A DNA stretch of 64,000 nucleotides from NCBI RefSeq assembly GCF_051903065.1, contig NZ_CP178438.1; one strand, written 5' to 3'. Each line of letters starts with the position of its first letter. Position 1 is the first letter of the stretch. Below, piece after piece: positions 4,511-44,814 of this stretch. The notes below the pieces were generated by a model that worked only from the letters and a program-made list of their open reading frames with translations, did not search any database and was not told the DNA's origin. A program made the translations under genes and the position numbers. The stretch comes from Escherichia coli. GTDB taxonomy: Bacteria > Pseudomonadota > Gammaproteobacteria > Enterobacterales > Enterobacteriaceae.

Positions 4511-6921
4511 TTGCACGCTGGTTCTGGCGCGAATGGCGTTCGCCGTCGCTATTAATTGTCTGGCTGGCGCTAAGCCTGGCGGTGGCCTGCGTGCTGGCGC
4601 TGGGCAATATCAGCGATCGCATGGAGAAGGGCTTAAGCCAACAAAGCCGGGAGTTTATGGCGGGCGATCGGGCGTTGCGCAGTTCGCGCGAAGTGCCGCA
4701 AGCATGGCTGGAGGAAGCGCAAAAGCGCGGCCTGAAAGTCGGCAAGCAGCTGACTTTCGCCACCATGACATTTGCAGGCGACACACCGCAGCTGGCGAAC
4801 GTTAAAGCGGTGGATGATATCTACCCGATGTATGGCGATCTGCAAACCAATCCCCCTGGCCTGAAACCGCAGGCGGGCAGCGTATTGCTGGCCCCACGCC
4901 TGATGGCACTGCTTAACCTGAAAACGGGCGACACCATTGACGTGGGCGATGCCACTTTGCGGATTGCCGGAGAAGTGATTCAGGAACCGGATTCCGGTTT
5001 TAACCCCTTCCAGATGGCTCCGCGTCTGATGATGAATCTGGCGGATGTCGATAAAACCGGAGCCGTGCAGCCGGGGAGTCGGGTCACCTGGCGCTATAAA
5101 TTCGGCGGCAGCGAGAACCAGCTCGACAGCTATGAGAAATGGTTGTTACCTCAGCTTAAACCCGAACAACGCTGGTACGGTCTGGAACAGGACGAAGGCG
5201 CGCTGGGGCGATCGATGGAACGCTCGCAACAGTTCCTGCTGCTTTCGGCGCTTCTGACCTTGCTGCTGGCAGTGGCAGCAGTGGCGGTAGCGATGAATCA
5301 TTACTGTCGCAGTCGCTACGATCTGGTGGCGATCCTCAAAACGCTGGGGGCAGGGCGAGCGCAACTGCGTAAGCTAATCGTCGGTCAGTGGTTGATGGTG
5401 CTGACGCTTTCAGCCGTTACCGGTGGGGCGATAGGCCTGTTGTTCGAAAACGTGTTGATGGTGCTGCTCAAGCCCGTTCTGCCTGCTGCACTACCGCCAG
5501 CCAGCCTCTGGCCATGGCTATGGGCGCTGGGCACCATGACGGTCATCTCGCTGCTGGTGGGGCTACGACCATACCGCTTGTTGCTGGCAACGCAGCCTTT
5601 ACGCGTATTACGTAATGATGTGGTAGCGAACGTCTGGCCGCTGAAGTTTTATCTGCCGATTGTCAGTGTGGTGGTTGTGCTGCTGCTCGCCGGATTAATG
5701 GGTGGCAGTATGCTGCTCTGGGCGGTGCTGGCGGGCGCGGTAGTACTGGCTTTGCTGTGCGGTGTGCTGGGCTGGATGCTGCTGAATGTACTTCGCCGCA
5801 TGACGCTGAAATCGCTGCCTCTGCGCCTGGCGGTTAGCCGCCTGTTACGTCAGCCATGGTCAACGTTAAGCCAGCTTTCGGCATTTTCGCTCTCCTTTAT
5901 GCTGCTGGCACTGCTGCTGGTGTTGCGTGGCGATCTGCTCGACCGCTGGCAGCAGCAGCTACCTCCAGAAAGCCCGAACTACTTTTTAATTAACATCGCC
6001 ACAGAACAGGTAGCACCGCTAAAAGCGTTCCTCGCGGAACATCAGATAGTCCCGGAATCGTTTTATCCGGTGGTGCGGGCGAGACTGACGGCGATTAACG
6101 GCAAGCCGACAGAAGGCAATGAAGATGAGGCGCTCAATCGCGAACTCAATCTTACCTGGCAAAATACGCGGCCCGATCATAATCCGATTGTCGCCGGTAA
6201 CTGGCCGCCAAAAGCCGATGAAGTGTCGATGGAAGAGGGGCTGGCGAAACGCTTAAACGTTGCCCTCGGTGATACCGTGACTTTTATGGGCGATACCCAG
6301 GAGTTCCGCGCTAAAGTGACCAGCCTGCGCAAAGTGGACTGGGAAAGTCTGCGGCCTAATTTCTATTTTATTTTCCCTGAAGGGGCATTAGACGGGCAAC
6401 CGCAGAGCTGGCTTACCAGTTTCCGCTGGGAGAATGGCAACGGCATGTTGACGCAACTCAACCGCCAGTTCCCTACCATTAGCCTGTTAGACATTGGCGC
6501 GATTTTAAAACAGGTCGGTCAGGTGCTGGAGCAGGTAAGTCGGGCGCTGGAGGTGATGGTGGTGCTGGTCACCGCCTGCGGTATGTTGCTGTTGCTGGCA
6601 CAGGTGCAGGTGGGAATGCGTCAGCGTCATCAGGAGCTGGTGGTGTGGCGCACACTCGGTGCGGGGAAAAAACTGCTGCGTACCACGTTGTGGTGTGAGT
6701 TCGCCATGCTTGGGTTTGTTTCCGGCCTGGTGGCCGCAATTGGTGCGGAAACGGCACTGGCAGTGTTGCAGGCGAAAGTGTTTGATTTTCCGTGGGAGCC
6801 AGACTGGCGATTGTGGATTGTTCTGCCGTGCAGCGGTGCGCTGCTGCTGTCGCTTTTCGGCAGCTGGCTGGGTGCGCGACTGGTTAAGGGTAAGGCGCTG
6901 TTCAGGCAGTTTGCGGGGTGA
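4507..6921 (+). CDS. ybbP: ABC transporter permease YbbP (FtsX/MacB-like)
   Basis: 804-aa ORF with duplicated multi-TM permease halves; coupled to ybbA. Confidence 0.9.
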   Translation: MIARWFWREWRSPSLLIVWLALSLAVACVLALGNISDRMEKGLSQQSREFMAGDRALRSSREVPQAWLEEAQKRGLKVGKQLTFATMTFAGDTPQLANVKAVDDIYPMYGDLQTNPPGLKPQAGSVLLAPRLMALLNLKTGDTIDVGDATLRIAGEVIQEPDSGFNPFQMAPRLMMNLADVDKTGAVQPGSRVTWRYKFGGSENQLDSYEKWLLPQLKPEQRWYGLEQDEGALGRSMERSQQFLLLSALLTLLLAVAAVAVAMNHYCRSRYDLVAILKTLGAGRAQLRKLIVGQWLMVLTLSAVTGGAIGLLFENVLMVLLKPVLPAALPPASLWPWLWALGTMTVISLLVGLRPYRLLLATQPLRVLRNDVVANVWPLKFYLPIVSVVVVLLLAGLMGGSMLLWAVLAGAVVLALLCGVLGWMLLNVLRRMTLKSLPLRLAVSRLLRQPWSTLSQLSAFSLSFMLLALLLVLRGDLLDRWQQQLPPESPNYFLINIATEQVAPLKAFLAEHQIVPESFYPVVRARLTAINGKPTEGNEDEALNRELNLTWQNTRPDHNPIVAGNWPPKADEVSMEEGLAKRLNVALGDTVTFMGDTQEFRAKVTSLRKVDWESLRPNFYFIFPEGALDGQPQSWLTSFRWENGNGMLTQLNRQFPTISLLDIGAILKQVGQVLEQVSRALEVMVVLVTACGMLLLLAQVQVGMRQRHQELVVWRTLGAGKKLLRTTLWCEFAMLGFVSGLVAAIGAETALAVLQAKVFDFPWEPDWRLWIVLPCSGALLLSLFGSWLGARLVKGKALFRQFAG

Positions 6922-6929
6922 TGACAGGT

Positions 6930-7250
<321 letters not shown>

Positions 7251-7834: not shown

Positions 7835-8944
<1,110 letters not shown>

Positions 8945-8997
8945 TCAAATCAGCTTGCGCGCTATTTTACGCGCCAACGCGCAAGGAAACTTGATTT

Positions 8998-9924
8998 TTA
9001 ACTGCGTGGGTTGCCGAAAATTTCTAAAAATCCGCTGATTTCCGGCCTGCGCTGGGTAAACAAGGTCACAATATCTTCTACCGCTTTGCCGCTGCCAAAT
9101 TTGCGCCATGCCAGACTCAATGGCGAAGGAGGGCGCATCGTTGGGATTACCCGGCTGACCAGTTGTTGATTATCGATCATTGACTGGCAAAGCGATTTTG
9201 GCAAAAAACCAATGCCAACGCCCGCCAGATGGGCGGCGATTTTCGTTTCCATATCAGGAACAATAATCTCTTTTTGCCCTGGCAATCGCCAGGCGACGCG
9301 TTTGGTTAAGGTGCGGGCGCTGTCTTCAATATTGACCGCCGGAAAGCGCCGCAACTGCGCTTCTGTTAGCGGCTCTTCAACGTTCGCCAGCGGATGATCC
9401 GCCGCCATGACAAATCGCCATTGCACCGATCCTAAGGGATCAAGACTAAAGGTATTTGCCAGCGCCTCAGTTCCCGTGACGCCGATAGCCAGCGAAAAAC
9501 CTTCGTACAATAGCGAGTCCCAGACGCCCATATAGATTTGTCGGGAGATGTGAAACTGGGTAAAGGGGTAACGCTCATTCAGCCACGCCAGCAACTGGGC
9601 GACGGCCTGGGGGGTGTAGAGCAGGTTGTTGATGACAATATTCACCTGGCGTTCCACGCCATCATTCACCTGTTGCAGCTCGCTTGGCATACTTTCCAGC
9701 CAGCTCAGCCAGTCTCTGGCCTGGGAAAGTAGATGCTCGCCAGCCGCTGTCAACGTCACGCTGCGAGTCGTGCGAAAAAACAGCGCCACTCCGGTATTCT
9801 CTTCCAGAAGTTTAATGCGATAACTGATCGTCGCCGTGGTTTTACATAATCGTTCTGCCGCTTTTGAAAAACTTCCTGTTTCAGCAACCGCAATGAAAGT
9901 CCGCAAGGTTTCTGGATCGAACAT
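8998..9924 (-). CDS. allS: LysR-family activator of allantoin genes
   Basis: 308-aa ORF with N-terminal LysR helix-turn-helix; divergent from allA. Confidence 0.9.
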
Positions 9925-20935: not shown

Positions 20936-21408
20936 CTAAAAATAATCAGGCGAGTGGTATGACTTAAATCTCTACGTCGCGGTTGCAATCTTTCGAGTAA
21001 ATATAGCTGAACGCTTCACCACGCCCTACGCCATAACCAGCCTGTAAAGAATAAGCGCCCATAAAGATGTAATCGCCTTTTTTCACCGGGATCCAGTTAT
21101 TGTCGAGGTTATAAACCCCCTGACCGGAAAGAATATAGGCACCGTGTTCCTGAACGTGTGTTTCGATATAACCATGGCTGGCACCTGGTGCAAAAGAGAG
21201 GATATGCATGTTCATATCAAAACCTAACTCTTTGGGCAGAAAATCCAGCAGGATCACATCATCCATACCTTCATAGTGAATGCGTTCCAGTTCGCTGGCA
21301 TTGCCAGAAACCAGCCACGGTGCATGGCCTTCTACCAGAACATAGCGGCGCTTGGTGATGCTGCCAACTTACTGATTTAGTGTATGATGGTGTTTTTGAG
21401 GTGCTCCA

Positions 21409-21684
21409 GTGGCTTCTGTTTCTATCAGCTGTCCCTCCTGTTCAGCTACTGACGGGGTGGTGCGTAACGGCAAAAGCACCGCCGGACATCAGCGCTATCT
21501 CTGCTCTCACTGCCGTAAAACATGGCAACTGCAGTTCACTTACACCGCTTCTCAACCCGGTACGCACCAGAAAATCATTGATATGGCCATGAATGGCGTT
21601 GGATGCCGGGCAACAGCCCGCATTATGGGCGTTGGCCTCAACACGATTTTACGTCACTTAAAAAACTCAGGCCGCAGTCGGTAA
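21409..21684 (+). CDS. insA: IS1 InsA
   Basis: 91-aa ORF with zinc-finger [14 protein letters not shown]...CSHC. Confidence 0.95.
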
Positions 21685-22106
21685 CCTCGCGCATACAGCC
21701 GGGCAGTGACGTCATCGTCTGCGCGGAAATGGACGAACAGTGGGGCTATGTCGGGGCTAAATCGCGCCAGCGCTGGCTGTTTTACGCGTATGACAGGCTC
21801 CGGAAGACGGTTGTTGCGCACGTATTCGGTGAACGCACTATGGCGACGCTGGGGCGTCTTATGAGCCTGCTGTCACCCTTTGACGTGGTGATATGGATGA
21901 CGGATGGCTGGCCGCTGTATGAATCCCGCCTGAAGGGAAAGCTGCACGTAATCAGCAAGCGATATACGCAGCGAATTGAGCGGCATAACCTGAATCTGAG
22001 GCAGCACCTGGCACGGCTGGGACGGAAGTCGCTGTCGTTCTCAAAATCGGTGGAGCTGCATGACAAAGTCATCGGGCATTATCTGAACATAAAACACTAT
22101 CAATAA
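21603..22106 (+). CDS. insB: IS1 InsB' (transposase made as InsAB' by -1 frameshift)
   Basis: 167-aa ORF overlapping insA in the -1 frame. Confidence 0.9.
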
Positions 22107-22536
22107 GTTGGAGTCATTACCGCGGCGCTTATATAAAAAGATTTGGCTGTCTTCGGCCTGGGCGTTAACAAACGTCATTAAGGAGCCTGGCGGGCAATAA
22201 AGATAGCCACCTTCGCTTAAGGCAAATGTTTTGCCTTCGGCTTTGGCAGTGATATTTCCAGAGATCACATACAGGAACGTTTCAATGCCTTCGCCACCGA
22301 AGCCCTGTTGGTTGCCACCGTTTTGATGCAGTGTGACCAGATAATCAACAAAAGAGGCACCCAGCTTTGGCGTGGAGAGGATTGTCGCGTCACAATTTTC
22401 AAAGCCCGGAATAATATTTTTTACCAGACCGTCTGGTGTTAACAGTGCGAAATTACCGTGTTTCACAATCGCACGGTTAGCCAGTAAATCATCGCGGTAA
22501 CCGGTGACGTTATTTAAATATCCCATTTATGACTCC

Positions 22537-23772
22537 TTATTTCTGCCAGGCAAGTTGATAAAGCATGAGTGCCAACGTTTTGACCCCTTCGGCAAGGTCG
22601 GTAATATTGGTGCGTTCCGCCGGGTTATGGCTGATCCCGTTGATGCTGGGGATAAAAATCATGCAGGTTGGTACGCGAGGCGCGAAAATTTGCGCGTCGT
22701 GCCCGGCACCACTGTGCATCACCCGGTAATTCAGTTTTTCACTTTCACACAATTCTGTCAGGGTGGCGACCAGGTCCTTATTCATCGGCACGGGTTCTTC
22801 GTCCATCCATAAATCGATATCAATACCAATGTCCATTTCATCGCAAATCGCCCGCATGTCGTTTTCTAACTGTTGGGTGAAATCACGCAGCACGGCGGCG
22901 TCGGTATGACGACAATCAATGGTGAATGTGGTTTTACCCGGCACCACATTCACCGTATTCGGGCGCGGCTCTACTTTCCCAAAGGTCAGAACCAGCGGAT
23001 CGCCCATCTTTTTCGCTTTTTCGATCGACTGATGGCAAATGCGACTGAAAGCGTAAACCGTATCACGACGATAACCCATCGGCGTGGTGCCTGCATGGTT
23101 TGATTCGCCGTTCAGCGTCACCGTATAGCGACGTTGCCCGACAATTGCATTCACCACGCCAATTGATTGCCCATTACTTTCCAGCACACAGCCCTGTTCG
23201 ATATGCAGTTCGACAAAGGCTTTAATATCCTGACGCGGAGTTAGCGGGGCGTCCGGCAGAGTAAATCCGCAAGCCTTCATCGCATCGACAAAACTATTTC
23301 CTTTGGCATCACAGATATTCCGCACGTCGTCAGGATTCGCCAGCCCAAAGATATTTTTGCTGCCCCAGAAAACATACGGGAAGCGGCTGCCTTCTTCTTC
23401 CGCCATCGCCACCACTTCAACCGTACGTAACGGCGCGCCGTATTGCGTTTTCAACCAGTCAATTGCCAGCCACGCCGCCAGCGCGCCGAATTGCCCGTCG
23501 AGGTTACCGCCGTTAACCACGGTATCGATATGCGAACCGCTCAGAACCACTTCCTGTGGATATTCGGTGCCACTCAGGCGACCGTATAAATTCCCCACTT
23601 CATCGAAACGTGTTTCCAGCCCACTTGCGGCCATTCTTTTTTTAAATTGCTGCTGGGTTTCCAGCCATTCCGGCGAATAAAGTAAACGGGTCATCCCACC
23701 CGTTGGGTCTGCGCCAAAAGAGGAAAGCCAGGGCAGCGTTTCTTCTATGGCTTGACGAAAATGTGTAATCAT
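22537..23772 (-). CDS. allC: Allantoate amidohydrolase (M20 peptidase family)
   Basis: Track ORF to 23790; start at MITHFRQ gives 411 aa. Confidence 0.9.
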   Translation of the reverse strand: MITHFRQAIEETLPWLSSFGADPTGGMTRLLYSPEWLETQQQFKKRMAASGLETRFDEVGNLYGRLSGTEYPQEVVLSGSHIDTVVNGGNLDGQFGALAAWLAIDWLKTQYGAPLRTVEVVAMAEEEGSRFPYVFWGSKNIFGLANPDDVRNICDAKGNSFVDAMKACGFTLPDAPLTPRQDIKAFVELHIEQGCVLESNGQSIGVVNAIVGQRRYTVTLNGESNHAGTTPMGYRRDTVYAFSRICHQSIEKAKKMGDPLVLTFGKVEPRPNTVNVVPGKTTFTIDCRHTDAAVLRDFTQQLENDMRAICDEMDIGIDIDLWMDEEPVPMNKDLVATLTELCESEKLNYRVMHSGAGHDAQIFAPRVPTCMIFIPSINGISHNPAERTNITDLAEGVKTLALMLYQLAWQK

Positions 23773-23793
23773 AAGAAAGTCCTGTCTCAATAA

Positions 23794-24843
23794 TTATTGC
23801 GCAAAGGGATTTTTCGTTTCGTATGACGTGTTATAAAGCGCGTCGGAAATTAAATACTGGTAAATATCATCAACAATTTCGATGCCTTCGACGGCGGCTT
23901 TGCGTTGTTTAATATCCTGATCCTGTCCGGGATAATAAACCTGATTAAAACCGGGCGCGGGGGTAATGGCATTTAATTCGCGCATGGTCTGGCTAAGATG
24001 TTGACGGAATAATTCGCTGGAGGAGAAAAAGTTCGGGTTAATAACTACATGTAATTGCCCCAAATTACGCCCGGCGTGTAAATCGTCATACATCGAACTC
24101 ACCTGTCGCCCGAACGGTAAGCCGAGTAAGACGCCTGAGAGAACGTCAATCATCATCATCAGGCCATACCCTTTCGGCCCGGCTGCGGGGAGCAGAGCAT
24201 GTACCGCGAACGGATCGGTTGTTGGTGCACCGTTTTTATCGACCGCCCAGGTATCCGGGATAGACATATTACGCGAGCGGGCGTCGAGCACTTTTCCCCA
24301 TGCCTGTACGGTAGTCGCCATATCAAAGGTAAGGATCTCGTCGCCTTCTCCCGGCGCGGCAAAGGCCAGTGGGTTAGTACCGTAGTAAATTTCCGCGCCG
24401 CCAAACGGCACCACCATTGGATCGGACTGGCACATCGAAATGCCAATTAATCCGGCGCGGGCTGCCCGCTGCACAAAATAAGAGATTGCGCCGCTGTGAC
24501 CCATCCGGCTGATACCGACCACCGCAACGCCATTTTGCTGGGCGGTTTTGATGGCATGTTCCATACCCATTTTCGCCGCGACCTGTCCGGCGGCATTGTC
24601 GGCATGTAAAATTGCCGAGCACGGCCCGGTTTCCTCAAGACGAAACTCCGGTTCGCGGTTGGTGCCGCCTTTTGAAATGCGTTCCGCGTAGTATTCCACG
24701 CGCACCGCGCCATGAGAGTGGATCCCTCTGGCATCGGCGTAAACCAATACTTCAGCCACGGTTGCAGCGTGCTCACGTTTTAACCCAGCCTGGCAGAGTT
24801 TATTCTCAATTAGCTGGTGGAGTGTTTCCCGACTGATTTTCAT
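23794..24843 (-). CDS. allD: Ureidoglycolate dehydrogenase
   Basis: 349-aa ORF of the malate/L-lactate dehydrogenase-2 family. Confidence 0.9.
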   Translation of the reverse strand: MKISRETLHQLIENKLCQAGLKREHAATVAEVLVYADARGIHSHGAVRVEYYAERISKGGTNREPEFRLEETGPCSAILHADNAAGQVAAKMGMEHAIKTAQQNGVAVVGISRMGHSGAISYFVQRAARAGLIGISMCQSDPMVVPFGGAEIYYGTNPLAFAAPGEGDEILTFDMATTVQAWGKVLDARSRNMSIPDTWAVDKNGAPTTDPFAVHALLPAAGPKGYGLMMMIDVLSGVLLGLPFGRQVSSMYDDLHAGRNLGQLHVVINPNFFSSSELFRQHLSQTMRELNAITPAPGFNQVYYPGQDQDIKQRKAAVEGIEIVDDIYQYLISDALYNTSYETKNPFAQ

Positions 24844-25298
24844 CTGTCTTCCTTTTTAACGACGGTGTGAAGCATGACTGCAATTAACATACAGGGAAAA
24901 TATCTGGATTATGTGATCCAGACAGGCAAAAAAATATAGTTAGAATTTATTTGATAATCCGCTCGCTTTTAACCTGGTTTTTAAAACAACCACGCTTATT
25001 AAAAAATAACACGTAATAGCATGGCGGTTATTTGAATTCTTTTGTTAATAATCCCTGTGTGATATTCATCACCTTATTTACCCGTTGTCATCGATACCGT
25101 AATCGCCACATTAACACTGCTCGTGCAATTGCCATGGGTGCAATTTTTAAGGAGTTGTTATGATCCACGCCTTTATTAAAAAAGGGTGTTTTCAGGATTC
25201 GGTCAGTTTAATGATTATTTCACGAAAACTCAGCGAATCAGAAAATGTTGATGATGTTTCCGTAATGATGGGTACGCCCGCCAGGTAATGACTCCAAC

Positions 25299-25802
25299 TT
25301 ATTGATAGTGTTTTATGTTCAGATAATGCCCGATGACTTTGTCATGCAGCTCCACCGATTTTGAGAACGACAGCGACTTCCGTCCCAGCCGTGCCAGGTG
25401 CTGCCTCAGATTCAGGTTATGCCGCTCAATTCGCTGCGTATATCGCTTGCTGATTACGTGCAGCTTTCCCTTCAGGCGGGATTCATACAGCGGCCAGCCA
25501 TCCGTCATCCATATCACCACGTCAAAGGGTGACAGCAGGCTCATAAGACGCCCCAGCGTCGCCATAGTGCGTTCACCGAATACGTGCGCAACAACCGTCT
25601 TCCGGAGCCTGTCATACGCGTAAAACAGCCAGCGCTGGCGCGATTTAGCCCCGACATAGCCCCACTGTTCGTCCATTTCCGCGCAGACGATGACGTCACT
25701 GCCCGGCTGTATGCGCGAGGTTACCGACTGCGGCCTGAGTTTTTTAAGTGACGTAAAATCGTGTTGAGGCCAACGCCCATAATGCGGGCTGTTGCCCGGC
25801 AT
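25299..25802 (-). CDS. insB: IS1 InsB'
   Basis: Identical 167-aa protein to copy 1. Confidence 0.9.
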
Positions 25803-25996
25803 CCAACGCCATTCATGGCCATATCAATGATTTTCTGGTGCGTACCGGGTTGAGAAGCGGTGTAAGTGAACTGCAGTTGCCATGTTTTACGGCAGTGAGA
25901 GCAGAGATAGCGCTGATGTCCGGCGGTGCTTTTGCCGTTACGCACCACCCCGTCAGTAGCTGAACAGGAGGGACAGCTGATAGAAACAGAAGCCAC
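25721..25996 (-). CDS. insA: IS1 InsA
   Basis: Identical 91-aa protein to copy 1. Confidence 0.95.
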
Positions 25997-27613
25997 TGGA
26001 GCACCTCAAAAACACCATCATACACTAAATCAGTAAGTTGGCAGCATCACCCGCCCGCCAATAAAGCGTTATTAGATACCACAGGTTTCTGGCATGACGA
26101 TTTTAATAACGCCACGCCGAACGATATTTGCGTGGCAATTCGTAGCGAAGCGGCGGATGCGGGGATCGCGCAGGCGATTATGCAGCAGCTTGAAGAGGCG
26201 CTAAAACAACTGGCGCAGGGGTCAGGCAGCAGCCAGGCGTTGACGCAGGTGCGTCGCTGGGACAGTGCCTGTCAGAAATTACCCGATGTCAATCTGGCGC
26301 TGATTTCAGTGGCTGGCGAGTATGCGGCGGAGCTGGCGAATCAGGCGCTGGATCGCAACCTCAACGTGATGATGTTCTCCGATAACGTCACGCTGGAAGA
26401 TGAAATCCAACTTAAAACCCGCGCGCGGGAAAAAGGCTTGCTGGTGATGGGGCCGGACTGCGGTACGTCGATGATTGCCGGCACGCCGCTGGCTTTTGCT
26501 AACGTGATGCCGGAAGGCAACATTGGCGTCATTGGCGCTTCCGGTACCGGGATTCAGGAGCTGTGTTCGCAGATTGCGCTGGCAGGGGAGGGAATTACTC
26601 ACGCGATTGGCCTTGGCGGCCGCGACCTCAGCCGTGAAGTGGGCGGCATCAGTGCGCTGACGGCGCTGGAGATGCTCAGTGCAGACGAGAAAAGCGAAGT
26701 GCTGGCATTTGTTTCAAAACCACCTGCCGAAGCGGTGCTTCTGAAAATTGTTAATGCCATGAAAGCAACCGGCAAACCGACGGTGGCGCTGTTTTTAGGT
26801 TATACCCCGGCGGTGGCCCGCGACGAGAATGTCTGGTTTGCCTCCTCGCTGGATGAGGCCGCACGCCTGGCTTGCCTGCTTTCACGCGTTACGGCGCGAC
26901 GTAACGCGATAACGCCTGCCAGCAGCGGATTTATTTGCGGTTTGTATACCGGCGGTACGCTGGCTGCCGAAGCGGCGGGATTACTTGCCGGACACCTTGG
27001 CGTGGAAGCCGATGATGCCCATCATCACGGCATGATGCTCGACGCCGATGGTCACCAGATTATTGACCTCGGCGATGATTTCTACACCGTCGGGCGTCCC
27101 CATCCGATGATCGACCCAACCTTACGCAACCAGTTAATTGCCGATCTCGGCGCTAAACCGTCAGTGCGCGTATTGCTACTTGATGTCGTGATTGGCTTCG
27201 GCGCGACCGCCGATCCTGCCGCCTCGCTGGTAAGCGCCTGGCAAAAAGCCTGTGCTGCGCGTTCAGACAATCAACCACTGTATGCCATTGCCACGGTGAC
27301 AGGCACTGAACGTGACCCGCAATGCCGCTCGCAGCAAATCGCCACGCTGGAAGATGCGGGGATTGCGGTCGTGAGTTCGCTACCGGAAGCCACCTTGCTG
27401 GCGGCAGCGTTAATTCATCCGCTCTCGCCTGCCGCACAGCAACACACACCGTCATTACTGGAAAACGTCGCCGTGATTAACATCGGATTACGCAGTTTTG
27501 CGCTGGAGCTACAAAGCGCCAGCAAACCGGTTGTGCATTACCAATGGTCGCCAGTCGCCGGCGGCAATAAAAAACTGGCTCGTTTATTAGAACGTTTGCA
27601 ATAAGGGGTTCCC

Positions 27614-28873
27614 ATGTTTACATCAGTGGCGCAAGCCAATGCTGCGGTTATCGAACAAATTCGTCGCGCTCGTCCACACTGGCTGGATGTGCAACCGGCT
27701 TCTTCACTTATCAGCGAACTACACCCGGGCAAAACATTGCTTCACGCCGGGCCGCCAATGCGCTGGCAGGAGATGACCGGACCCATGAAAGGGGCGTGCG
27801 TGGGCGCATGTCTGTTGGAAGGTTGGGCGAAAGATGAAGCGCAGGCGCTGGCAATACTGGAGCAGGGGGAAGTGAACTTCATTCCTTGTCACCATGTGAA
27901 TGCCGTCGGGCCAATGGGCGGTATTACTTCTGCCAGTATGCCGATGCTGGTGGTCGAGAACGTGACCGACGGCAACCGGGCGTACTGCAACCTCAACGAA
28001 GGTATCGGCAAAGTGATGCGTTTTGGCGCTTACGGCGAAGATGTCCTGACTCGCCATCGCTGGATGCGCGATGTGTTAATGCCAGTATTAAGCGCGGCGC
28101 TGGGGCGCATGGAGCGCGGTATCGATCTTACCGCGATGATGGCGCAGGGCATTACGATGGGCGATGAGTTCCATCAACGCAATATTGCTTCCTCAGCACT
28201 GTTAATGCGTGCGTTGGCCCCACAAATTGCTCGCCTCGATCATGATAAACAGCACATCGCGGAAGTGATGGATTTCCTCAGCGTGACCGATCAGTTCTTC
28301 CTCAACCTTGCGATGGCTTACTGCAAGGCGGCGATGGATGCTGGCGCGATGATCCGCGCAGGCAGCATCGTCACGGCAATGACCCGCAACGGCAATATGT
28401 TCGGGATTCGGGTAAGCGGGCTGGGCGAACGCTGGTTTACTGCGCCTGTAAACACTCCGCAAGGTCTGTTTTTCACCGGCTTTTCGCAGGAGCAGGCGAA
28501 CCCGGATATGGGCGATAGCGCGATTACCGAAACCTTTGGTATCGGAGGTGCGGCAATGATCGCAGCGCCTGGCGTAACGCGCTTTGTCGGTGCGGGTGGC
28601 ATGGAAGCGGCAAGAGCGGTATCTGAAGAGATGGCGGAAATTTACCTTGAACGCAATATGCAGTTGCAGATCCCAAGCTGGGATTTTCAGGGCGCGTGCC
28701 TGGGGCTGGACATTCGTCGCGTGGTAGAAACCGGCATTACGCCACTCATCAATACCGGTATCGCCCATAAAGAGGCGGGGATCGGGCAGATTGGCGCAGG
28801 CACCGTGCGGGCACCGCTGGCGTGCTTTGAACAGGCGCTGGAAGCACTGGCTGAAAGCATGGGTATTGGTTGA
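27614..28873 (+). CDS. ylbE: DUF1116 protein YlbE (oxamate carbamoyltransferase component)
   Basis: Intact 419-aa ORF downstream of fdrA. Confidence 0.8.
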
Positions 28874-28883
28874 GGAACGCGCA

Positions 28884-29699
28884 ATGACGATCATCCATCC
28901 TCTGCTTGCCAGTAGTAGCGCACCGAATTATCGCCAGTCCTGGCGGTTAGCGGGAGTGTGGCGGCGGGCGATTAACCTGATGACGGAAAGCGGCGAACTG
29001 TTAACGCTGCATCGTCAGGGTAGTGGTTTCGGCCCCGGAGGATGGGTGCTTCGCCGTGCGCAATTCGATGCGTTATGCGGTGGATTATGCGGCAATGAAC
29101 GACCACAGGTTGTGGCTCAAGGGATTCGCCTCGGGCGTTTCACGGTTAAACAGCCACAGCGTTATTGTTTGCTGCGTATTACGCCGCCTGCGCATCCTCA
29201 ACCACTTGCAGCTGCATGGATGCAACGCGCGGAGGAAACCGGGCTTTTCGGGCCACTGGCGTTGGCGGCAAGCGATCCGCTGCCTGCTGAGTTACGCCAG
29301 TTTCGTCACTGTTTTCAGGCCGCGCTCAATGGCGTTAAGACCGACTGGCGGCACTGGCTGGGTAAAGGCCCCGGATTAACGCCGAGTCATGATGACACGC
29401 TGAGCGGAATGCTGCTGGCGGCCTGGTATTATGGCGCTTTAGATGCGCGCTCCGGTCGTCCGTTTTTTGCCTGTTCCGACAATCTGCAACTCGTTACCAC
29501 AGCGGTGAGCGTCAGTTATTTACGTTATGCCGCGCAAGGATATTTCGCCTCGCCACTCCTGCACTTTGTTCATGCTCTGAGTTGCCCGAAACGTACCGCT
29601 GTTGCGATTGATTCGCTGCTGGCGCTGGGGCATACGTCAGGGGCAGATACACTGCTGGGGTTCTGGCTTGGTCAACAATTATTACAAGGAAAACCATGA
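28884..29699 (+). CDS. ylbF: YlbF (DUF2877; oxamate carbamoyltransferase component)
   Basis: Track ORF starts 28791; start at [11 protein letters not shown] gives 271 aa. Confidence 0.8.
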
Positions 29700-30589
29700 A
29701 AACACTGGTTGTAGCTCTTGGGGGCAATGCCTTGCTTCAGCGCGGTGAGGCGCTGACGGCAGAAAATCAATATCGCAATATCGCCAGTGCTGTACCCGCG
29801 CTGGTACGCCTGGCCCGTTCTTATCGGCTGGCGATTGTTCACGGCAACGGGCCGCAGGTGGGGCTGCTGGCGTTACAGAATCTGGCGTGGAAAGAGGTAG
29901 AACCGTATCCGCTGGATGCGCTGGTGGCGGAAAGCCAGGGGATGATTGGCTATATGCTGGCGCAGAGTTTGAGCGCACAGCCGCAGATGCCGCCTGTCAC
30001 GACGGTGCTGACGCGCATTGAGGTTTCGCCTGATGATCCGGCGTTTTTGCAGCCAGAGAAATTTATTGGTCCGGTTTATCAGCCAGAAGAACAAGAGGCA
30101 CTGGAAGCGGCTTACGGCTGGCAGATGAAACGTGATGGTAAATATTTACGCCGGGTGGTGGCGTCTCCGCAACCGCGTAAAATTCTCGACAGCGAAGCCA
30201 TCGAGTTGTTGCTCAAAGAGGGGCATGTGGTGATTTGCAGTGGCGGCGGCGGTGTGCCTGTGACGGGTGACGGAGCAGGGAGTGAAGCAGTGATTGATAA
30301 AGATCTCGCCGCTGCGTTGCTCGCCGAGCAGATTAATGCAGATGGACTGGTGATCCTCACCGATGCTGATGCGGTATATGAAAACTGGGGAACGCCGCAG
30401 CAACGTGCCATTCGCCATGCCACACCGGATGAGTTAGCGCCATTTGCCAAAGCCGATGGTTCGATGGGGCCGAAGGTAACGGCGGTGAGTGGTTATGTCA
30501 GAAGCCGTGGTAAACCCGCGTGGATTGGGGCGTTATCGCGGATTGAAGAGACGCTGGCGGGCGAAGCGGGGACCTGTATTTCGCTGTAG
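29696..30589 (+). CDS. ybcF: Carbamate kinase-like protein
   Basis: 297-aa ORF; amino-acid kinase fold with N-terminal GGNAL motif; overlaps ylbF stop. Confidence 0.85.
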
Positions 30590-43688: not shown

Positions 43689-43930
43689 AGTTACCAGTCT
43701 CATAGGAGCGGACAATTTTCCGTTAGGGCGGTAAATTGTACTTTGATACATGAAAATACGGGTTTTCTTGATTCAGACGCGCAGCGGTGTGCGTTTGTTT
43801 GCCGCTATAGCGAAATAAATCAGAAAATCAGACGCGGTCGTTCACTTGTTCAGCAACCAGATCAAAAGCCATTGACTCAGCAAGGGTTGACCGTATAATT
43901 CACGCGATTACACCGCATTGCGGTATCAAC

Positions 43931-44007
43931 GCGCCCTTAGCTCAGTTGGATAGAGCAACGACCTTCTAAGTCGTGGGCCGCAGGTTCGAATCCTGCAGGG
44001 CGCGCCA
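43931..44007 (+). tRNA. argU: tRNA-Arg (anticodon UCU, reads AGA)
   Basis: GCGCCCTTAGCTCAGTTGGATAGAGCAACGACCTTCTAAGTCGTGGGCCGCAGGTTCGAATCCTGCAGGGCGCGCCA; cloverleaf with TCT anticodon and 3' CCA. Confidence 0.95.
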
Positions 44008-44052
44008 TTTCTTCTTCATTTATGCCCGTCTTATCCGTTTCCGCTTTGCCCT

Positions 44053-44814
44053 TCACCACATCACTTTTTGTCGCTGTTTGGCGAGATAATTCAACGGTGT
44101 CAGGCCGTAAAACGCCTTAAAAACAGAGATAAAGTACGACGTGCTGCTATAGCCACATAATTGCGCCACCTGAGTGATATTTTTGTTATCCATCAATAAC
44201 ATCTGTACGGCGTAACGCATACGACACTCTGTGACAATCTGGCTATAGCTGGTATTTTCGTTTTTTAATTTCTTTTTGAGCAGGCTGGGGCTTAAACATA
44301 GCGAACTGGCGACAATTCGCAGATTCCAGTAATGCTGAATATCGCTTTGAATAATGCGGCAGACGCTGTCGCGGACGCTGCTGCGTAAGATATACATCAG
44401 TAGGGCAATAAACCGCGATTGCTCAAGAAAGTTAGACAATACGGTAAAAAGCAATGCGCGTGTCAACTCCGCTTCGCAGGGTTTGCTGGGTTGCTGCTTG
44501 CTGTGGTTGGCGGCTAGCCGGAACACTTCCGGTGTACGGCTATGACAAGCGATAACCGGGGTAGCCAGCCGCGACCAGGGCTTTACACAGGTTAAGTTCT
44601 TATTTAAAAACAACAGATAATCGTTGATGATGTTACGGTTGATGTGGGTGATTAATACGTGATTTAACGTTGAGAGTTCAATGACGTTATTGTTGCACGC
44701 GAAGGCGGCCAGGTAGTTTTTCGGAAGGGTAAACGTAGCATGGTTATTGACGCTTACCTCTACCTCTTTTTCGGTCAGGATCACCACGCAAGGTTCACTG
44801 CTGCTCAATTGCAT
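44053..44814 (-). CDS. envY: AraC-family transcriptional regulator EnvY
   Basis: 253-aa ORF with C-terminal AraC helix-turn-helix. Confidence 0.85.
   Translation of the reverse strand: MQLSSSEPCVVILTEKEVEVSVNNHATFTLPKNYLAAFACNNNVIELSTLNHVLITHINRNIINDYLLFLNKNLTCVKPWSRLATPVIACHSRTPEVFRLAANHSKQQPSKPCEAELTRALLFTVLSNFLEQSRFIALLMYILRSSVRDSVCRIIQSDIQHYWNLRIVASSLCLSPSLLKKKLKNENTSYSQIVTECRMRYAVQMLLMDNKNITQVAQLCGYSSTSYFISVFKAFYGLTPLNYLAKQRQKVMW

Follow-up and report, generated by a model that had tools for sequence, protein, structure and literature searches.

An IS1 copy in codon 42 of fdrA (allF), at the head of the allFGHK operon in an Escherichia coli allantoin cluster

What becomes of the oxamate branch of anaerobic allantoin catabolism in an E. 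coli strain whose fdrA gene is split, close to its start, by an insertion sequence? The products of fdrA, ylbE and ylbF (allFGH) form oxamic transcarbamylase, which converts oxalurate into oxamate and carbamoyl phosphate, and ybcF (allK) encodes the carbamate kinase, giving ATP and NH3 (PMC11326118; PMC9843812). The four genes fdrA-ylbE-ylbF-ybcF share one transcript and one promoter, which is located upstream of fdrA (PMC9843812; PMC12535856), and this allF promoter requires both AllS and ArcA and is induced ~38-fold by allantoin under anaerobic conditions (PMC12535856). A first-pass annotation of the 64,000-nucleotide stretch analysed here (the window, from contig NZ_CP178438.1) described the branch as leading from oxamate to carbamoyl phosphate, whereas the reaction starts from oxalurate and yields oxamate together with carbamoyl phosphate.

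Proteins of E. coli K-12 MG1655 were mapped onto the window by tblastn. The gene order of the region is native: selU, allS, allA, allR, gcl, hyi, glxR, allW, allB, ybbY, glxK, allE, allC, allD and fdrA are followed, as in K-12, by ylbE, ylbF, ybcF and then purK onward, and the synteny of allD, the divergent fdrA-ylbE-ylbF-ybcF unit and purK is present. The genes of the allantoin region are full length and 97-100% identical to those of K-12, the only exceptions being fdrA, which is split at residue 41/42, and allE, which is split at residues 133-135. The region between allD and fdrA is intact; it measures 316 bp, as in K-12, and has 10 substitutions relative to MG1655. The features on the fdrA side of the locus are as follows.

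24844..25159, no strand: allD-fdrA divergent intergenic region, which holds the AllS/ArcA-dependent allF promoter
25160..25288, + strand: truncated 5' ORF of fdrA (allF), 41 native codons followed by an Arg codon and a TAA that the IS1 end provides
26060..27604, + strand: 3' fragment of fdrA (allF), codons 42-555 and the stop, open, first start GTG 26132
27614..28873, + strand: ylbE (allG), intact, 419 aa, 99.3% identity to K-12 over the full length
28884..29699, + strand: ylbF (allH), intact, 271 aa, 100% identity to K-12
29696..30589, + strand: ybcF (allK), carbamate kinase, intact, 297 aa, NF006926 614.7 bits

The fdrA ATG is located at 25160, with the Shine-Dalgarno (SD) sequence AAGGAG six bases upstream (25149-25154), and residues 1-41 of K-12 FdrA are 100% identical to the translation of window positions 25160-25282 (tblastn). 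The gene is then cut where the first-pass annotation had cut it, after codon 41 of a frame with its own SD, and the 41 native residues are followed by an arginine and a stop. An uninterrupted full-length FdrA ORF was looked for and is lacking; because the ORF from the native ATG stops after 42 codons, full-length AllF cannot be made, and fdrA in the window is a pseudogene allele.

The frame is broken at window 25284-26051 by an IS1 that is complete, 768 bp long and reversed relative to fdrA, as established by inspection of the sequence. It is flanked by a 9-bp duplication, CGCCCGCCA, and consists of the following parts.

25275..25283, no strand: left 9-bp target-site duplication CGCCCGCCA, exact copy
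25284..26051, - strand: IS1 (IS1A-type), complete, with IRR at 25284-25306 and IRL at 26029-26051
25299..25802, - strand: insB frame, 167 aa, NF033558 profile positions 75-199
25721..25996, - strand: insA, 91 aa, GTG start, NF033558 profile positions 1-81
26052..26060, no strand: right 9-bp target-site duplication CGCCCGCCA, exact copy

Read along the + strand, the element starts with GGTAATGACTCC, the IRR end, and finishes with GGCAGCATCACC, the IRL end; at full length, GGTAATGACTCCAACTTATTGAT opens the + strand at IRR and the reverse complement of GGTGATGCTGCCAACTTACTGAT closes it at IRL. These terminal inverted repeats (GGTGATGCTGCCAACTTACTGAT / GGTAATGACTCCAACTTATTGAT) are imperfect and about 23 bp long, matching at 18 of 23 positions. 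Against the IS1 transposase model NF033558 (NCBIfam; cut-off 100 bits) the InsB part scores 145.6 bits and the InsA part 91.3 bits, and the two jointly cover positions 1-199. The A6C programmed-frameshift motif TTAAAAAAC is intact at IS1 position 305 (window ~25739-25747). Length, terminal repeats, insA and insB with A6C, profile match and 9-bp duplication are all those of the IS1 family, and the element in fdrA looks functional. Every coordinate that had been given for it in the first-pass annotation, together with its reversed orientation and its flanking duplication, proved exact.

An exact match of a 9-mer at a fixed position has a chance probability of ~4e-6. IS1 prefers to insert at a GC-rich 9-mer lying within AT-richer surroundings, and CGCCCGCCA, which is 89% GC in a neighbourhood of 37-43% GC, fits this target preference. 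Compared with simple insertions of IS1 (IS1A type) in E. coli, the element is alike in its 768 bp, its ~23-bp repeats, its insA and insB, its A6C motif and its 9-bp duplication, and no difference in kind can be discerned.

If IS1 entered an otherwise normal gene, the two halves of fdrA should rejoin once it is taken out, and the first-pass annotation had named the collinearity of the N- and C-terminal fragments in one frame as its own check. We ran this check: excision in silico of IS1 and one copy of CGCCCGCCA leaves a single frame of 555 aa, FdrA/AllF, which ends at 27604. The restored protein matches the FdrA family model NF004760 (cut-off 433 bits) over positions 1-555 of 555 with 1037.9 bits, and it matches PDB entry 3DMY, 'Protein fdrA', with E=1e-302. 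We favour, with a probability of about 0.88, a simple transposition of IS1 into fdrA codon 42 that would have knocked out allF, with polarity on allGHK and loss of the oxamate branch.

Might the IS1 in fdrA instead be a product of genome assembly, a repeat that was collapsed or misplaced? The element is multicopy, with ~10 places in the median genome and 36-39 in related ones, which is the circumstance that speaks for such an error; against it, the target duplication is perfect, and both junctions recur in two independently assembled complete genomes, and we regard an assembly artefact as vanishingly improbable. The recurrence came from a search of complete E. coli genomes, 5,426 in all, with the empty site, rebuilt over 120 bp, as one of the queries. 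In 5,345 of them the site is uninterrupted and contains CGCCCGCCA once. Both 100-bp junction-spanning queries matched in a single piece only in 23CRST027 and 23CRST031 (NZ_AP045789.1 and NZ_AP045800.1), which are from human faeces in Ecuador. These two genomes are identical to the window in both junctions, in the orientation of IS1 and in the allE::IS1 insertion, and their flanks agree with it at 100% over 21 kb and 99.997% over 37 kb; unlike the window, they carry an extra IS903B near window 22554-22563, with allC on one side and the 5' fragment of allE on the other. In both of them RefSeq/PGAP annotates fdrA as a pseudogene, 'incomplete; missing N-terminus', and the name that PGAP gives to the matching element in 23CRST031 is 'IS1-like element IS1A family transposase'. 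With the empty site in 5,345 genomes and the junctions in two near-identical ones, the fdrA::IS1 allele is derived, rare and clonal, and it is already in public records.

The insertion in fdrA is accompanied by another, in allE, and the first-pass annotation had accordingly described the fdrA element as a second, inverted IS1. The description holds: the other copy is identical to it at 768/768 positions and lies in the other orientation. The following features define the arrangement.

21354..22121, + strand: first IS1, in the opposite orientation, splitting allE at residues 133-135
22122..25283, no strand: segment between both IS1 copies, 3,162 bp, with inverted IS1s at its ends
22526..22122; 23772..22537; 24843..23794: contents of that segment, the allE 5' part, allC and allD, followed by the promoter region and the first 41 codons of fdrA

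Two inverted copies around a block of genes raise the question of whether the pair, together with the 3.16 kb that it encloses, arrived or moves as one unit. IS1 composite transposons of the Tn1681 type have such an inverted-IS1 architecture, and the copies that bracket allE'-allC-allD-'fdrA here are 100% identical. However, the first IS1 is flanked by a 9-bp duplication of its own, GCGGCGCTT (21345-21353 and 22122-22130), and the fdrA copy likewise by its matched pair, and the outer 9-mers GCGGCGCTT and CGCCCGCCA differ. The K-12 gene order, moreover, runs on undisturbed through the interior and on the two outer sides. As an origin, a composite transposon of the Tn9 or Tn1681 type was rejected: the two bracketing IS1 copies are present, whereas a single outer duplication and a foreign passenger are absent; arrival or movement as a unit is accordingly very unlikely. 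An inversion between the two copies was likewise considered and rejected, each copy retaining its matched duplication. Given these matched duplications, the differing outer 9-mers and the collinear interior, both IS1 copies are separate in-place insertions, with no inversion between them.

How would a simple insertion at codon 42 affect the operon? In the mechanism that we propose, IS1 transposed into fdrA (allF), with which the allFGHK operon begins, and the usual 9-bp duplication resulted. Ribosomes that start at the native SD and ATG stop after 42 residues, and the other 514 codons are separated from the promoter-proximal start. Transcripts from the AllS/ArcA promoter that proceed past the stop at 25288 would then run through 768 nt of antisense IS1 RNA that is not translated, where Rho-dependent termination would be expected. 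Whichever way it lies, IS1 exerts polarity by Rho-dependent termination, as known from gal and lac, although the polarity is rarely absolute. The genes allG, allH and allK, themselves intact, would thus be predicted to drop sharply in expression, because their transcripts would have to traverse an untranslated antisense copy of a polar element; we infer this polarity on ylbE, ylbF and ybcF from the arrangement of the operon.

The oxamic transcarbamylase would lack AllF, and the oxamate branch would be lost along with its carbamate-kinase ATP and NH3. The loss is expected because oxamic transcarbamylase needs AllF: in the K-12 experiments from which this activity is known, a ΔallF strain made 0 mM oxamate, compared with 17.7 mM in the wild type, and its flux was shifted to oxalate (PMC11326118). 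That strain, LMB076 (ΔallF, or ΔfdrA; Kim & Kim 2024, PMC11326118), has in common with the window the loss of full-length AllF, and by analogy a similar phenotype would be expected here, no oxamate and flux directed to the glyoxylate/oxalate branch. Unlike the LMB076 deletion, the allele in the window is a natural insertion for which polarity on allGHK is expected, and it is accompanied by a broken allE.

The first-pass annotation had proposed that the insertion would abolish or deregulate the operon. The first of these terms is the better supported; the second finds no support on the fdrA side of the element, where a consensus scan, which is a crude match, detected no outward + strand promoter at the IS1/fdrA junction. 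The scan returned 3 sites in total, compared with 2.7 ± 1.5 in shuffles; the sole site at the junction is the insA promoter already known, which points inward on the minus strand (26044 to 26017). An outward promoter at this junction thus finds no support, to the resolution of such a crude scan, there being no + strand site and a total at shuffle level. A start or fusion ORF borne by IS1 and leading into the fdrA 3' part was also considered and rejected: the frame is open back to the IS1-internal TGA at 25961, but between this TGA and GTG 26132 it contains no ATG, GTG or TTG. On the other side of the element, insAB is transcribed from the same strand as allD-allC. Read-through from IRR that adds weak constitutive allDC transcription is a speculative idea; a terminator-like minus-strand hairpin (24924-24901) lies between IRR and allD.

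Could the allele nevertheless be leaky? The ORF that begins at GTG 26132 and ends at 27604 does exist, as the first-pass annotation had noted; it encodes 490 aa, and its first residue corresponds to FdrA residue 66. A second candidate start, ATG 26180, is FdrA Met82 and has a weak AGG 5 nt upstream. Translation from either of these, on read-through or cryptic transcripts, might supply a truncated FdrA with some activity alongside AllG and AllH, whose genes, like allK, are intact. The Pfam domains CoA_binding (193-287) and Ligase_CoA (336-491) both lie downstream of the break. PDB 3DMY comprises FdrA residues 82-555 and starts at precisely the methionine encoded at window 26180, and this fragment has been described as a homodimer (PMC11326118). 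Since residues 82-555 crystallise alone as a stable protein, a truncated product remains conceivable, and the earlier statement that the GTG ORF probably gives no functional protein is likely to be right but falls short of proof. Residual activity when AllF is missing altogether is also conceivable under overexpression: in a ΔallFGH strain, plasmid-borne allGH alone gave ~16% of wild-type oxamate (PMC11326118).

Several features of the locus run counter to a leaky allele. The family model NF004760 extends over the whole of FdrA, 555 positions with the N-terminus among them, and this speaks for conservation of residues 1-81. GTG 26132 is not preceded by an SD, the scan detected no outward promoter at the junction, and IS1, as textbook knowledge has it, is polar in either orientation; allE, moreover, is broken as well. 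We consider activity from a truncated FdrA improbable, and we retain insertional inactivation of allF, with polarity on the genes behind it, as the preferred reading.

The consequences for the strain have to be seen together with the broken allE, which impairs the pathway one to two steps upstream of the fdrA step. With allE already broken by the first IS1, a connection that the first-pass annotation had not drawn, the extra phenotypic effect of fdrA::IS1 may be small. In the proposed mechanism, the identical IS1 copy in allE would mark the allantoin cluster of this clone as one that is decaying by IS activity.

Is there anything more than neutral decay in this? IS1 has been inserted independently in this neighbourhood in genomes of other lineages. 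In DLI.6n an IS1 in the same orientation lies 11 bp upstream of the window's fdrA site, and rhsD abuts it, indicating a deletion or rearrangement. In WP7-S17-ESBL-04 an IS1 is located in the allD-fdrA intergenic region and fdrA is intact; six further genomes share the match pattern of this genome, as far as match pattern alone is concerned. In LR-29-1 a 96.9%-identical IS1 occupies exactly the same allE nucleotide as in the window, with flanks that are ~2% divergent, a deletion reaching hyi, and an intact fdrA. LR-29-1, with allE::IS1 and an intact fdrA, was considered as a clue to the order of the two insertions in the window and was rejected: its IS1 identity of 96.9% and its ~2% divergent flanks mark a separate event.

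IS1 occurs within this 0.8-kb stretch in ~20-29 genomes, which are not phylogenetically independent. The number to be expected is ~9, if each of the 5,426 genomes measures 5 Mb and has the median of ~10 IS1 places, and the target is 0.8 kb long. An IS1 hot spot in fdrA is not established by this count, which is rough, was made over related genomes and corresponds to an enrichment of at most ~3-fold. The hits at fdrA codon 42, in DLI.6n, in WP7-S17-ESBL-04 and in allE of LR-29-1 are those behind the idea that repeated independent insertions in unrelated E. coli lineages reflect selection to lose the oxamate branch in some gut niches, or an IS1 hot spot, in place of neutral decay. This idea is tentative and, in our view, unlikely; the rough IS1 count over 0.8 kb does not demand it.

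In kind, fdrA::IS1 is a textbook case of insertional inactivation, and it is already known in the sense that the allele has been deposited and annotated in RefSeq. The work that settled the function of fdrA/allF dates from 2024; the insertion opens no new mechanism. Its use lies in metabolic modelling or phenotype prediction for this lineage, with little reach outside the annotation of the strain. For the clone, the prediction is that it lacks the oxamate branch when it degrades allantoin anaerobically, and it would thereby lose the extra NH3 and ATP that are obtained from oxalurate; it could be viewed as a small case of IS-driven decay in an accessory nitrogen-scavenging pathway.

The first IS1 of the window breaks allE at residues 133-135. 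In LR-29-1 an IS1 with the same orientation interrupts allE at the identical nucleotide. The elements at issue in the allantoin cluster, and one tRNA gene with its neighbour, are as follows.

Window 21354-22121, plus strand: first IS1, with duplications at 21345-21353 and 22122-22130.
L007 (extracted genome locus) 6283-7050: IS1 at the allE site, given for the LR-29-1 comparison.
Window equivalent about 22554-22563; L001 (extracted genome locus) 8655-9622: position of IS903B.
Window about 43900-44800, located through the corresponding stretch L006 16591-17474: tRNA-Arg, with envY next to it.

Despite this coincidence of position, the LR-29-1 element is only 96.9% identical to the first IS1 of the window, the sequence flanking it is approximately 2% divergent, and its far side is joined to hyi, i.e., glxR to allE' has been deleted. 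The LR-29-1 insertion looks like a separate event at the same target site.

Other IS1 insertions are found near the fdrA site of the window. DLI.6n carries an independent IS1 (L003, its extracted locus, 1783-2550) 11 bp upstream of that site and in the same orientation, the opposite end of which adjoins rhsD. In WP7-S17-ESBL-04, an independent IS1 (L004, its extracted locus, about 1280-2050) is located in the allD-fdrA intergenic (promoter) region, and fdrA is intact; at the level of search matches, six further genomes share this pattern. As to the protein itself, the sole solved FdrA structure, PDB 3DMY, begins at Met82 (window 26180) and therefore lacks the 81 N-terminal residues, which are covered by the 555-position family model NF004760.

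Two further observations concern other parts of the window. The ybbP-selU spacer (window 7002-7237) contains a direct repeat of approximately 136 bp with a 100-bp offset and 92.6% identity, adjoining a gene that PGAP annotates in the sister genome as a dinQ-type type I toxin; at this position K-12 instead has rhsD, ybbC, ylbH and related genes. In a near-identical sister genome, envY directly follows tRNA-Arg (argU), where K-12 carries the DLP12 prophage segment, which appears to be missing from the lineage of the window.

The sister genomes 23CRST027 and 23CRST031, the public genomes nearest to the window, possess an additional, frameshifted IS903B that the window does not have, in the gap separating the start of allE from the end of allC. 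Apart from this element, their sequences match the window at 100% and 99.997% identity. Insertion sequences are still building up in the allantoin cluster of this clone.
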